Source of the DNA: a virus
Lineage: Duplodnaviria > Heunggongvirae > Uroviricota > Caudoviricetes
DNA: 4,368 bases
Direction: 5' to 3' (one strand)
Virus record (IMG/VR): IMGVR_UViG_2671180915_000012
The number at the start of each line of letters is the position of its first letter. Within the stretch, counting starts at the first letter, position 1. The translations under genes and the position numbers were made by a program. The notes beneath the pieces were generated by a model that ran no database searches, was not told where the DNA came from, and was given only the letters and a program-made list of their open reading frames with translations. Below, one piece after another: positions 780 through 2,651 of this stretch.

Positions 780-997
780 ATCCTCACCCCGATGTACACA
801 GATGGTGCAATATGTTTGAAAAGATCGGAGTCTATGGGGTAGTTTTTATAGCAAACGTTGTTCTCAACGGCGCTAAAAAACAGACACATTAAAAATGTGG
901 GTAATTATTTTAAAAGAAAATCATATATTAAATAATAATACGAGATATGTTTTCATATTTAGTGTACTGTATACGGCCATTTATACAGGAAAAGCCT

Positions 998-1168
998 ATG
1001 TCAGAACGTAAAGACTCAAAATCACGCCGTAATTATCTCGTTAAATGTTCCTGCCCAAACTGCACCCAAGAGTCAGAACACAGTTTTTCAAGAGTACAAA
1101 AAGGTGCCCTTTTGATCTGCCCTCATTGCAACAAAGTATTCCAGACAAATCTTAAAGCTGTAGCTTGA
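998..1168 (+). CDS. ynfU: Small zinc-ribbon protein, 56 aa (YnfU-like)
   Basis: ATG at 998 is preceded by AGGAAAAG (SD, ~7 nt spacing); stop TGA 1166-1168. Protein MSERKDSKSRRNYLVKCSCPNCTQ...ICPHCNKVFQTNLKAVA has two CxxC pairs. Length, motif and position between holin and cspB match my memory of K-12 YnfU; symbol is from memory, not a search. The track's upstream ATG at 947 lacks an SD. Confidence 0.6.
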   Translation: MSERKDSKSRRNYLVKCSCPNCTQESEHSFSRVQKGALLICPHCNKVFQTNLKAVA

Positions 1169-1230
1169 TTGATTTTATTCGTAACAAGTATTTTTTATAT
1201 TTTAATAACATATTTAAAGCAGATAATAAA

Positions 1231-1250
1231 AAACCCGCCTGAGCGGGTTT
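1231..1250. terminator. Rho-independent terminator hairpin, strongest for minus-strand transcripts (end of cspB transcript), weakly bidirectional
   Basis: AAACCCGC-CTGA-GCGGGTTT forms an 8-bp GC-rich stem with a 4-nt loop. Minus-strand tail is TTTTTTATTAT; plus-strand tail is the weaker TAATATT. Confidence 0.65.
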
Positions 1251-1531
1251 AATATTGTGGTACTTTTTGTGGGAGTCATCCACTTACGCACTTTGTTTTG
1301 CTATGCCAGCAGTTAGCTTCTGCTGTAAAACTATTCATGCAGCAAACCTGCACTTCACCACAATGGTTAGCATACTTTTCCTGATTAAGTTATTGCCAAA
1401 TATGCTGGCCATTGTTTCATGTATTGGACCTCCTTACTCTTTATTAAAGAGATCCAATATTCACCACTCTGTCTGTATCTCCACTCAGGCATCAGCCTTC
1501 TTCGTTATCGTATACAGACAAACTATGAATT

Positions 1532-1747
1532 TTAATCAGTAATTATGACATTTGCTGCTGCAGGACCTTTAGCACCACTCTCTACAGAGAAGGTAACCTT
1601 TTGACCTTCAAATAAGGTTCGATAATTATCATTCTGAATCGCAGAAAAATGCACAAACACATCTTTACTACCATCAACAGGAGAAATAAAGCCAAAACCT
1701 TTATCAGCGTTAAACCATTTTACTAAACCAGTCATTTTATTTGACAT
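1532..1747 (-). CDS. cspB: Cold-shock protein CspB (CspA family, S1-like cold-shock domain), 71 aa
   Basis: [71 protein letters not shown] carries the RNP1/RNP2 motifs (KGFGFI, VFVHF) and the CspB-specific residues I recall. AAGGAA SD 6 nt upstream of ATG 1747. Confidence 0.95.
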
Positions 1748-1889
1748 TCTACATTCCTTAACTTGAGCCTTTCGGCATAAATGGCTTGTATAACAGAAAC
1801 GACTTCGTACTTAATTGGAGAGACTCAAAGAAGGAATAAGTGAATAACACCTGAAATGAGAACTGCTTTAGTAAACTACTTCGTATATC

Positions 1890-1905
1890 GTCTGTTCTTC
1901 AAACC
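1890..1905 (-). promoter_or_regulatory. Cold-box-like element at the 5' end of the cspB leader
   Basis: Minus strand reads GGTTTGAAGAACAGAC, close to the cspA leader start GGUUUGACGUACAGAC as I recall it, followed by a shared TAAAGCAG. It lies just downstream of the predicted TSS (~1908), giving a ~160-nt 5' UTR as in cspA. Confidence 0.5.
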
Positions 1906-1914
1906 GACGCAATC

Positions 1915-1943
1915 ATTAACGCATAGTTGAACATATGAAGCAA
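1915..1943 (-). promoter_or_regulatory. Putative sigma70 promoter of cspB (-35 TTGCTT, 17-nt spacer, -10 GTTAAT)
   Basis: Minus strand TTGCTT-CATATGTTCAACTATGC-GTTAAT resembles the cspA promoter (TTGCAT / CTTAAT) with an AT-rich upstream tract. Predicted start ~1908 is consistent with the cold-box position. Confidence 0.45.
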
Positions 1944-2047
1944 TGTTTATTTTAGACATCCAGCCATCTTCAACCCCATCAAAAAACTATAGCTTTCTTC
2001 AGGAACGTGTGTATAGTGCGCCAAGTTATCAGTATTAAGGAATTTTT

Positions 2048-2260
2048 TTGTCCCGTAAAATGACAGGAATTCTCAAAACCTTTGACGGCAAAAGCGGCAA
2101 AGGTCTTATAACCCCATCCGATGGTCGTATCGATGTCCAGCTTCATGTTTCAGCGCTCAATCTCCGCGATGCAGAAGAAATTACCACCGGATTACGCGTG
2201 GAATTTTGCCGGATAAATGGTCTGCGTGGACCATCAGCTGCCAATGTTTACCTTTCATGA
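2048..2260 (+). CDS. cspF: Cold-shock protein family member CspF, 70 aa, apparent TTG start
   Basis: [70 protein letters not shown] matches CspF/CspH, the divergent CspA paralogs lacking canonical RNP motifs. AAGGAA SD 5 nt before TTG 2048; the conserved MSRKMTG N-terminus supports the non-ATG start. Confidence 0.9.
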
Positions 2261-2314
2261 GCTATATTAAAGCTTTAACTTCAAGCCCCATCGAATCAAA
2301 CATGGAGAGTTTTC

Positions 2315-2404
2315 ATGAATAAACCCGTCTGTCTTGATGACTGGTTGATTGGCTTTAAAAGCTTATGCTGTACTTTGACCTTAATAGCTCTGCTAATAAT
2401 ATAA
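2315..2404 (+). CDS. Candidate small ORF, 29 aa, hydrophobic C-terminus (possible small membrane protein)
   Basis: GGAGAG sits 5 nt upstream of ATG 2315; ORF ends TAA 2402-2404. Peptide [29 protein letters not shown] has a polar N-terminus and a TM-like tail. Below the track's length cutoff; no homolog recalled. Confidence 0.25.
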
Positions 2405-2553
2405 TAAGCAGACTCATTGTATCTATGGACATTGTACTGGAAGAAAGCATTTTAAACATCAGGCAAAAAACAAAGTCACCCGATAAATAATAAGTAAACT
2501 AACATGAATCCCGTAATGAGATTCAACATCTCTATTACCCTATTTAAAGCACA

Positions 2554-2577
2554 AAAACCCGCTCATCAGCGGGTTTT
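2554..2577. terminator. Intrinsic terminator; on the minus strand it is the tR'-like terminator downstream of the late promoter, and it may also end cspF-side plus-strand transcripts
   Basis: AAAACCCGCT-CATC-AGCGGGTTTT forms a 10-bp stem with a 4-nt loop. Minus-strand tail TTTTTGTGCTTT; plus-strand tail CTACTTTTTCTT. Confidence 0.7.
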
Positions 2578-2622
2578 CTACTTTTTCTTAACTTCGGGTA
2601 TACAAAGCCCATCGTTGAAAAA

Positions 2623-2651
2623 ATTTTATCCATATTTTTTGAAAAATGCAA
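2623..2651 (-). promoter_or_regulatory. Putative late promoter pR' (-35 TTGCAT, 17-nt spacer, -10 TAAAAT); the qut site for the Q antiterminator is expected to overlap it
   Basis: Minus strand TTGCAT-TTTTCAAAAAATATGGA-TAAAAT lies directly downstream of the Q gene stop (2683) and ~45 nt upstream of the terminator hairpin. This is the canonical lambdoid Q / pR' / short transcript / tR' layout. Confidence 0.6.

Follow-up and report, generated by a model that had tools for sequence, protein, structure and literature searches.

The Qin prophage of Escherichia coli K-12 carries the genes ynfU (b4776), cspB (b1557), cspF (b1558) and ynfS (b4750) between ydfT/quuQ and essQ. This cspB/cspF cassette of Qin-type prophages is already known, as are its genes, its location in the prophage and the moron status of cspB. 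In K-12, cspB is induced upon a downshift in temperature. In E. coli LF82 lysogens, cspB of the prophage Tritos is transcribed 59-fold over the prophage background and was named a moron, the Tritos morons cspB and cspI being defined by their transcription in lysogens (PMC9928086). A review covers the control of the cspB leader by temperature, including the binding of Rho at 37 °C (PMC12360218), and a cspA cspB cspG cspE quadruple mutant is cold-sensitive (PMC6719143). In lambdoid Stx phages, the slot between Q/pR'/tR' and S is occupied by the stx operon, and this slot and its control by pR' have been described (PMC8065619).

Here, we compare these systems with a stretch of 4,368 nucleotides (the window) from a virus of the Caudoviricetes (IMG/VR record IMGVR_UViG_2671180915_000012). 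It is very likely that positions 792-2547 of this window form an exchangeable cargo cassette, or moron in the sense of Hendrix and Juhala (an additional unit of genes carried by a phage), in the Q/pR'/tR'-to-lysis slot of a Qin-type lambdoid prophage of E. coli, with the expression scheme that we propose below.

An AT-rich cassette of four small genes lies between Q and the holin gene

The original prediction, made from the sequence alone, was that an AT-rich island inserted at 880-2650 holds only small genes, namely a ynfU-like gene, cspB, cspF and a 29-aa ORF. GC content bears out the AT-richness, with 36.5% GC across 880-2650. The cargo proper (792-2547) has 36.7% GC compared with 46.0% in the left flank (1-791) and 49.9% in the right flank (2548-4270); against the pooled flanks (48.7%) this gives z = -7.75. 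The gene content was also as predicted. The cargo genes are exactly ynfU, cspB, cspF and the 29-aa ynfS, all of which score above Pfam thresholds and are annotated in RefSeq relatives (Table 1). Thus, the cargo as a whole differs in composition from the surrounding phage genes, as a moron should, but cspF alone does not. The AT-richness is patchy: cspB has 34.7% GC (GC3 0.21), as does the non-coding DNA that makes up 61% of the cassette, and cspF is at the level of the flanks with 46.9%. Some AT-richness is to be expected of any csp locus and of any DNA rich in non-coding sequence.

A two-breakpoint fit on composition only returned 451-2790, which is wider than the cargo, so GC by itself leaves the cargo ends unfixed. 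In comparisons with phages that carry other cargo, homology on the holin side breaks off at 788-791 and homology on the Q side at 2548-2551. By comparison with these relatives, the originally predicted start at 880 is about 90 bp late and the right end at 2650 overshoots by about 100 bp, reaching into the conserved Q module (2548-2682), which holds a lambda-like late promoter, pR', and the terminator tR'. It could be argued that there is no discrete island here and that the low GC is an ordinary compositional dip of the lambdoid late-control region, given that the holin (45%) and Q (46%) genes are also below the E. coli average and that the best fit on composition exceeds the cargo. We regard this as highly improbable, and on sequence comparison it is already contradicted: the homology breaks are sharp in many phages, other cargo in the same slot has 42-48% GC, and the cassette is also found in unrelated backbones.

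Table 1. Coordinates of the features in and around the cassette, in window positions
Feature	Position	Strand	Evidence and remarks
Holin essQ, P21-type class II	564..779	-	Pfam PF04971, 115 bits; RefSeq; first lysis gene downstream of the cassette
Cargo cassette (very likely a moron), Q-to-holin slot	792..2547		1756 bp, 36.7% GC; ends set by loss of homology with phages of other cargo
ynfU, 56-aa zinc-ribbon protein	998..1168	+	Pfam PF23499, 107.7 bits; antisense to late transcription
Duplicated terminator motif, copy A	1202..1250	.	TAATAACATATTTAAAGCA...AAAAACCCGC..GCGGGTTT; between ynfU and cspB
Predicted terminator T2	1222..1250	-	Terminator scan; 8-bp G+C-rich stem (1250..1231), then TTTTTTATTATC
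Stable hairpin directly after the cspB stop codon	1469..1515	-	No T-run; matches 3' end of the Rfam cspA model (positions 398-428)
cspB, 71-aa cold-shock protein	1532..1747	-	Pfam CSD PF00313, 108.9 bits; same orientation as late operon
cspB 5' untranslated leader, cspA-type thermoregulator	1748..1908	-	161 nt; Rfam RF01766
Candidate cspB promoter	1914..1943	-	TTGCTT, 17-nt spacer, TGcGTTAAT; AT-rich upstream; read from sequence
cspF, 70-aa cold-shock-domain protein, degenerate RNA-binding motifs	2048..2260	+	Pfam CSD, 74.1 bits; divergent from cspB
ynfS, 29-aa hydrophobic small protein	2315..2404	+	Pfam PF23697, 71.7 bits; K-12 b4750
Duplicated terminator motif, copy B	2532..2576	.	Across the junction of Q module and cargo
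Predicted late terminator tR'	2549..2577	-	Terminator scan and folds; stem 2577..2554, then TTTTTGTGC
Predicted late promoter pR'	2608..2651	-	-35 TTGCAT 2651-2646; -10 TAAAAT 2628-2623; then TCAACGATGGG
Late antiterminator Q (ydfT/quuQ type), 250 aa	2683..3435	-	Pfam PF03589, 179.3 bits; RefSeq annotation

The cassette adjoins a lambda-type late-control module

Next to the cassette the sequence contains the elements of lambda-type late control. These are Q, a predicted promoter, a putative pause element close to that promoter and a predicted intrinsic terminator. In an ungapped register, 35 of 56 positions of pR' are identical to lambda (NC_001416), and the spacing of the -35 element, the -10 element and TCAACGATGGG is the same. 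The TCAACGATGGG after pR' is identical to the lambda pR' pause region; AACGAT is the pause element of established lambda work. All phages with this Q share the pR' block and the tR' hairpin, and the SfV and Ayreon records list the hairpin as a terminator. On the + strand the tR' hairpin is followed by a T-rich tail, so it is also predicted to be able to end cspF-ynfS transcripts. The DUF968 gene in the window is interrupted by IS1203/IS629.

cspB has a cspA-type leader and predicted signals of its own

Alignment showed that both aromatic motifs of CspB, RNP1 (KGFGFI) and RNP2 (VFVHF), are intact. This is not so for CspF, which has GKGLI for GFGFI and VQLHV for VFVHF. The cspB coding sequence is 98.6% and its leader 98.8% identical to K-12. 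Together, leader and mRNA (1908..1469) gave a full-length match to the cspA thermoregulator RF01766 (model positions 1-428), scoring 156.7 bits where the gathering score is 78 (E = 4.9e-42). The position of the candidate promoter, which we take to resemble the cspA promoter, agrees with the start of the Rfam model at 1908. The hairpin after the cspB stop codon folds with -25.8 kcal/mol (z = -5.3). Further downstream, the terminator scan predicts that T2 (-19.0 kcal/mol, z = -4.84), which faces the holin, ends the cspB transcript.

With a promoter-like site at 1943..1914, a cspA-type leader and T2, cspB has the promoter and terminator of its own that are expected of a moron. The original prediction that each of the four genes has its own expression signals holds to this extent; no convincing promoters were identified for cspF, ynfS and ynfU. 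A consensus promoter scan found 10 sites compared with 7.0 +/- 2.5 in shuffles, which is no excess. Such a scan is uninformative in DNA this AT-rich. An Rfam search found no RF01766-type leader upstream of cspF, and an E-value search of the cassette for further structured RNAs returned, besides cspA, only sub-threshold terminator-like matches. It is the detection of the YnfU and YnfS proteins in K-12, where Qin is cryptic (bioRxiv 10.1101/511675), that suggests that ynfU, cspF and ynfS may have expression signals of their own.

A terminator motif occurs in two copies

A duplicated terminator motif had been proposed to bound the island on the Q side. The duplication itself is well supported, with none of 5000 shuffles reaching the similarity score of copies A and B and 1 of 5000 doing so for the flank without the hairpin. 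However, only one copy is at the Q side and the other is internal, in the gap between ynfU and cspB. T2 and tR' have in common the stem and an 11-nt flank, which at the junction falls on the side of the cargo. In Citrobacter cassettes the stem of T2 is kept and its loop is variable.

We considered a two-step assembly in which the ynfU unit arrived first and cspB-cspF-ynfS later, between the terminator copies. This model was dropped because the recombinant ynfU-T2/tR'-pR' junction that it predicts occurs in none of 5,426 complete E. coli genomes and because ynfU accompanies cspB/cspF in Citrobacter and in phage PHB10. The best matches to this junction query came from a different variant, that of SF-468, which is without 1986-2537.

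The slot is variable and the cassette occurs in other backbones

Related prophages do not all have identical content here, since the same Q, the same holin or both occur with other cargo. After the same Q/pR'/tR' (~96% identical), SfV, mEp460 and Ayreon carry methylase genes, PhiR47_1 carries tRNAs, and an Stx2c phage carries a methylase, tRNAs and stx2AB. On the other side, what comes before a holin of the same type in PhiR49_1 and PhiR49_2 is a porin gene or tRNAs. Thus, the cassette is positioned as a moron would be, flanked by genes that in relatives are neighbours or are set apart in another way, with unrelated cargo replacing it at the break points 788-791 and 2548-2551. The cassette is present at 80% coverage or more in 1619 of the 5426 complete E. 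coli genomes. A holin and tR' junction query of these genomes found no empty site, here defined as one where tR' and this holin are at most ~720 bp apart; no locus covered both halves of the query. The original prediction spoke of an inserted island; given that no empty site was found, replacement of cargo is documented and an insertion event is not, and what the comparisons establish is an exchangeable cassette.

The cassette is mobile between backbones. In Citrobacter prophages it is between a PF06530-type Q and a PF16080-type holin, both unlike those in the window, and in SF-468 it is in a DLP12-like E. coli prophage. In PHB10 it adjoins the integrase and umuDC, outside any late operon. These other Q and holin contexts and the location near the PHB10 integrase point to an exchangeable cargo cassette. 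The moron pattern that had been predicted is therefore borne out by the variability of the slot, mobility between backbones, the cspB signals and the published transcription of Tritos cspB. The extra 1.55 kb of PhiR63_1 gave no Rfam match and its 94-aa ORF no Pfam match. A reading of the cassette as a defence system was rejected; PADLOC returned only a generic cold-shock-domain match.

Could the cassette be AT-rich, largely non-coding DNA without selected function that hitch-hikes in a recombination-prone slot and slowly decays? Its high non-coding content is in keeping with this, as are the IS200C insertions that occur, the deletion or frameshifting of cspF/ynfS in Tritos, SF-468 and E. ruysiae, and the state of CspF, whose aromatic RNA-binding residues have been lost and to which no function has been assigned (PMC6719143). 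The loss of cspF/ynfS in several relatives suggests that part of the cassette may be dispensable. By contrast, ynfU and cspB are intact in Citrobacter, with 80-90% protein identity where DNA identity is only ~75%, the cassette has diverged less than the phage genes that flank it, and its genes are expressed, as protein for YnfU and YnfS of K-12 and as RNA for Tritos cspB (PMC9928086). A neutral passenger is thus an improbable explanation.

Discussion

We propose that the cargo is expressed in two ways. In the lysogen, RNA polymerase from pR' would make only a ~68-nt leader and stop at tR', and the cassette genes would be expressed independently of it. Transcription of cspB would start at its own sigma-70 promoter (~1943..1914), and the 161-nt cspA-type leader would hold expression low at 37 °C and open in the cold. 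T2 (1250..1222) would stop this transcript and so keep cold-induced transcription out of the holin. CspB is predicted to share the RNA-chaperone role of its paralogues CspA, CspG and CspI. The cspF/ynfS and ynfU genes would be transcribed in the opposite direction, converging on the tR' and T2 hairpins. After induction, Q-modified polymerase would pass tR', transcribe the entire ~1.77-kb cassette and continue past T2 as far as the holin, just as it reads through stx in Stx phages. In this late read-through cspB would be sense, and ynfU, cspF and ynfS antisense.

Whether this copy of cspB gives a benefit in the cold is uncertain, since several csp genes of E. coli are cold-inducible and redundant. 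Any such benefit would probably be masked by these paralogues.

The cassette might instead mainly serve the phage. In this case Q read-through would flood the cell with CspB, an RNA chaperone and transcription antiterminator, which could aid expression of the extended late operon, above all at low temperatures, and expression in the lysogen would be secondary. We consider this unlikely, although cspB is co-oriented with Q, the holin and the lysis genes between pR' and S, the csp genes belong to a recognised phage protein family (PHROG 729) that is also present in non-lambdoid and plasmid-like phages (Cyrano, pJN2-26, and Morganella and Gram-positive phages), and the cassette is retained in inducible, plaque-forming phages such as 2H10, Tritos and PhiR63_1. 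Against it, cspB still has a complete predicted cold-shock promoter and leader of its own, and its transcription in lysogens is strong without induction (PMC9928086). In addition, all of the cassette genes except cspB run antisense to late transcription, the PHB10 cassette is beside the integrase, and close relatives of the phage manage without it.

A more speculative extension of the cargo-cassette model, to which we give little weight, is that ynfU > T2 < cspB <> cspF ynfS > is one coherent mobile module that moves as a whole from one phage backbone to another, unrelated one in Escherichia and Citrobacter, and that it was perhaps captured in a Qin-type phage by recombination inside the terminator hairpin. 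CspF, YnfU and YnfS might then act together with CspB, for instance by modulating or antagonising Csp activity, and T2 might be needed to stop cold shock from activating the holin.

The locus provides a clean worked example of a Q-to-holin cargo slot with ends at base-pair resolution, in which a cold-shock cassette accompanies the same late-control module that is behind stx2c expression in pathogens. Two details may be of interest: the possible shielding of lysogens by T2 from cold-induced expression of the lysis genes, and the role of the always-paired CspF/H-type proteins.

Of the known systems, K-12 Qin has the same gene order and orientation and the same type of Q, tR' and holin. The cassette is 96.2% identical to it at the DNA level (100% between cspB and cspF), more than Q (91.4%), ydfR (88.9%) or DUF968 (85.5%), and identity is 70/71 residues for CspB, 69/70 for CspF, 55/56 for YnfU and 26/29 for YnfS. 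Homology with Qin spans only 352 to 3766 of the window, and DUF968 is cut by an IS here, unlike in K-12. Tritos has the cassette in the same slot, ~94-95% identical, but is without 2251-2507, which includes the 3' end of cspF and ynfS. Stx2c phages have this Q/pR'/tR' module at 96% identity up to position 2550. Their cargo of methylase, tRNAs and stx2AB is all sense with the late operon; high toxin output in Stx phages needs Q read-through, whereas cspB has predicted autonomous, cold-regulated signals. The chromosomal cspH-cspG locus of E. coli (with ymcF, ymcE and gnsA) likewise pairs a divergent, cold-inducible csp gene with a degenerate CspF/H-type gene and is 76.5% identical over 1633-2256, intergenic region included. 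It differs in that it has no Q or lysis flanks, is nearly universal in E. coli and is without ynfU and ynfS, and cspG runs into a cspI-like downstream region. Lastly, the cspA thermoregulator RF01766, matched over its full length by the cspB leader and mRNA, is here on a prophage-borne paralogue whose 3' hairpin is without a T-run, with the next predicted intrinsic terminator ~280 nt downstream.

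Composition and gene content

The island predicted between the Q gene and the holin, originally placed at 880-2650, was borne out in composition and in gene content. GC content is 36.5% in that range and 36.7% in the cargo as defined by comparison with relatives (792-2547), as opposed to 46.0% and 49.9% in the left and right flanks (island versus pooled flanks, z = -7.75). The AT-richness is uneven across the island. Both cspB (GC3 0.21) and the non-coding DNA that makes up 61% of the island have a GC content of 34.7%, whereas cspF is flank-like at 46.9%. A two-breakpoint fit on composition only returned 451-2790, and thus GC content reveals the dip but cannot fix its ends. 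Pfam and RefSeq relatives agree with the four genes that had been listed (ynfU, cspB, cspF and a 29-aa ORF). CspB, CspF and YnfU each differ from their K-12 counterparts at one residue and YnfS at three, and alignment confirmed the degenerate motifs of CspF.

Every phage gene of the window is carried on the minus strand. Window 1-4270 is 99.95-100% identical to prophages of E. coli O55:H7 CB9615 and other strains, and 352-3766 is 93.5% identical to the K-12 cryptic prophage Qin. The last 98 bases (4271-4368) are the left end of IS1203/IS629 (IS3-family), which opens with the orfA codons MTKNTRFSPEVRQR and interrupts the DUF968/ydfU gene; this exact junction was absent from 5,426 complete E. 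coli genomes and the GTDB representative genomes. There is a second mosaic joint within or just past ydfR (window 1-352), where homology begins at 352 in K-12, Tritos and HannyBb, at 308 in mEp460 and PhiR47_1, and at 220-223 in 2H10, PhiR63_1 and PhiR49_2. A plus-strand ORF at 7-249, called hypothetical in RefSeq, overlaps the 3' end of ydfR and has no Pfam match.

Genes of the window and the late terminator
Feature	Coordinates	Strand	Remarks
DUF968/HNH gene, ydfU type	4243..3449	-	
Late antiterminator Q, ydfT/quuQ type	3435..2683	-	Pfam PF03589
Terminator tR'	2577..2549	-	hairpin annotated as terminator in SfV and Ayreon
ynfS, 29-aa ORF	2315-2404	+	passes Pfam threshold; annotated in RefSeq relatives
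cspF	2048-2260	+	passes Pfam threshold; annotated in RefSeq relatives
cspB	1747..1532	-	passes Pfam threshold; annotated in RefSeq relatives
ynfU	998-1168	+	passes Pfam threshold; annotated in RefSeq relatives
P21-type holin essQ	779..564	-	
ydfR, DUF1327 gene	559..215	-	

Limits of the cargo and content of the slot

The ends of the cargo were located by comparing the window with thirteen relatives. The DUF968-Q region is ~96% identical in SfV, mEp460, Ayreon, PhiR47_1 and a Stx2c-converting phage, and similarity to these five vanishes at 2548-2551, directly past a hairpin and T-run. On the other side, the holin is common to mEp460, Ayreon, PhiR47_1, PhiR49_1 and PhiR49_2, and similarity runs out at 788-791, some ten bases 5' of the holin start codon. 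These breaks define a slot of 792-2547, correcting both ends of the predicted range, and 2548-2682 belongs to the Q module. There the minus strand carries TTGCAT and TAAAAT separated by 17 nt, with AACGATGGG another 6 nt further on. The spacing is the same as in lambda pR', to which 35 of 56 positions are identical in ungapped register, including the 11-mer TCAACGATGGG; in lambda, AACGAT is the promoter-proximal pause element. From its sequence, this lambda-like pR' region (2549-2651, minus strand) is predicted to yield a constitutive leader RNA of ~68 nt (2616..2549) ending at tR'. Stx2c-converting phages share the Q/pR'/tR' module at 96% identity, and a regulatory small RNA originating from the pR'-tR' leader has been described in Stx phages (PMC8065619).

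As the original prediction had proposed, related prophages were compared; slot content differs among them, with sharp homology breaks. Behind the same Q/pR'/tR', mEp460, Ayreon and SfV carry two small ORFs and a DNA methylase, PhiR47_1 carries small ORFs and four tRNAs, and the Stx2c phage carries a lipoprotein-like ORF, a methylase, two tRNAs and stx2A/stx2B. With other Q genes upstream, the related holin is preceded by an OmpD-type porin in PhiR49_1 and by tRNAs and a methylase fragment in PhiR49_2. The GC content of these alternative cargos is 42-48%. A junction query found tR' within ~720 bp of this holin in none of 5,426 complete E. coli genomes. The varied cargo and the lack of such a junction therefore indicate cassette replacement rather than an empty site.

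A duplicated terminator motif was also predicted to bound the island on the Q side. The duplication is real: 1202-1250 (copy A) and 2532-2576 (copy B) align across the hairpin and a flank with the 11-mer TATTTAAAGCA, and shuffled sequences reached the motif score in 0 of 5000 cases for the whole and 1 of 5000 for the flank alone. Only copy B is at the boundary; copy A lies within the cargo. Since copy B straddles the homology break, with its hairpin on the phage side and the shared flank on the cargo side, the arrangement would be compatible with a cassette that was captured or exchanged through recombination inside the similar hairpins. Insertion of cspB-cspF-ynfS between terminator copies beside a pre-existing ynfU was considered and is unsupported.

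Expression signals

Each gene of the island had been thought to have its own expression signals, and this held for cspB, which has a promoter-like site, leader and terminator. The Rfam cspA thermoregulator model gave a full-length match at 1908..1469 on the minus strand (156.7 bits; gathering score 78), which places the cspB transcription start at ~1908 with a 161-nt leader. Directly upstream is a candidate promoter resembling that of cspA (TTGCTT, 17 nt, TGcGTTAAT), with AT-rich DNA in front of it. Past the cspB stop codon lies a stable hairpin that lacks a T-run (1515..1469, z = -5.3), and ~280 nt further on a strong intrinsic terminator, T2 (stem 1250..1231, then TTTTTTATTATC; -19.0 kcal/mol, z = -4.84). 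T2 is kept with the cassette in Citrobacter with an invariant stem and variable loop. Because cspB is directed at the holin, T2 would insulate the lysis genes from cold-induced transcription in the lysogen. For ynfU, cspF and ynfS no convincing promoter was found, consensus-scan sites being no more frequent than in shuffled sequence. Small minus-strand hairpins with T-rich tails in the late transcript (869..856; palindrome CACATTAAAAATGTG at 884-898; 2525..2505, just past tR') may contribute further termination upstream of the holin and downstream of tR'.

The main alternative to a moron is that the cassette aids the phage's own late expression. The position of cspB, in sense within the late transcript, is compatible with this, but the three antisense genes fit it poorly. 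cspF/ynfS and ynfU run opposite to cspB and converge on tR' and T2, two hairpins that are also followed by some T-rich sequence when read on the plus strand.

Distribution and mobility

The cassette is present at ≥80% coverage in 1,619 of 5,426 complete E. coli genomes and in the phages 2H10, PhiR63_1, PhiR42_1, HannyBb and Tritos (Tritos with 2251-2507 deleted). A shorter form with ynfU and cspB, lacking 1986-2537 and 1364-1450, lies in a DLP12-like prophage of E. coli SF-468. A CspF search identified three Citrobacter species in which all four genes recur in unchanged order (DNA ~75% identical across window 959-2374; proteins 80-91%, YnfS ~50%). Flanks were examined at one Citrobacter locus, that of Citrobacter sp. 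FP75, where the cassette is bordered on one side by a Q from another family (PF06530, 152 aa) and on the other by a holin of another kind (best match PF16080). In phage PHB10, ynfU-cspB-cspF adjoin an integrase and umuDC outside any late operon, a context that also fits poorly with a role in late expression. Identity to K-12 is 96.2% for the cassette (cspB leader 98.8%, cspB-cspF intergenic region 100%) and 91.4%, 88.9% and 85.5% for the carrier genes Q, ydfR and DUF968. Greater conservation than the carrier, together with occurrence in different carriers, is the pattern expected of a cassette that is exchanged horizontally and under selection.

Some E. coli copies contain an IS200C insertion, and cspF is disrupted in E. 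ruysiae and in a contig that binning assigned to Veillonella, although it is evidently Escherichia DNA. For cspB with its leader and 3' region (window ~1224-1925; island 433-1134), DNA matches of ~71% occur in the SSU5-like phage-plasmid Cyrano and, over a shorter stretch, in Klebsiella phage pJN2-26. Both records annotate the matching DNA as something unrelated ('DNA polymerase III alpha subunit', 'portal protein'). In PhiR63_1 (L005 4017-5570), two direct copies of window 2600-2740 enclose a further 1.55 kb of AT-rich DNA (28-41% GC), so the Q 3' end and pR' are present twice. The enclosed DNA holds only small ORFs, one of 94 aa with a C-terminal hydrophobic tail, and has no Rfam or Pfam match; HannyBb (L013) has the same arrangement. 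The K-12 chromosomal cspH-cspG locus (L014 4964-6241, cspH-cspG-ymcF-ymcE-gnsA), which IS1D adjoins, matches cspF-cspB at 76.5% (window 1633-2256) and, from within cspG onward, the prophage cspI-ynfQ...gnsB region (within L001 3421-8260) at 72-74%. The locus has the appearance of a Qin-like prophage stripped of its lysis genes by cspB x cspI recombination.

Comparison with known systems

Slot variability, backbone mobility, composition, autonomous cspB signals and published expression support the proposal that 792-2547 is a moron. Tritos, the prophage of Crohn's-associated LF82, carries this cassette. In cultures that were not induced, transcription of its cspB, counted among the prophage's morons, exceeds the prophage background 59-fold (PMC9928086), and such strong lysogen expression agrees poorly with a benefit to late phage expression. 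A cold-adaptation benefit is plausible for cspB and conjectural for the island as a whole. Because of redundancy, simply deleting the island from a wild-type strain would probably have no visible effect. The cspB leader is bound by Rho at 37 °C and takes up a closed form in the cold, as reviewed in PMC12360218. CspF and CspH are poor in aromatic residues, and no function is known for them (PMC6719143).

The feature is real, ordinary and already known. All four genes are annotated in Qin of K-12, where YnfU, which has two CPXC zinc knuckles, and YnfS were detected by tagging (10.1101/511675). Horizontal acquisition of Qin cspB and cspI has been predicted (PMC6379469), and both the Q-to-S slot and the idea of the moron belong to the standard description of Stx phages (PMC8065619).
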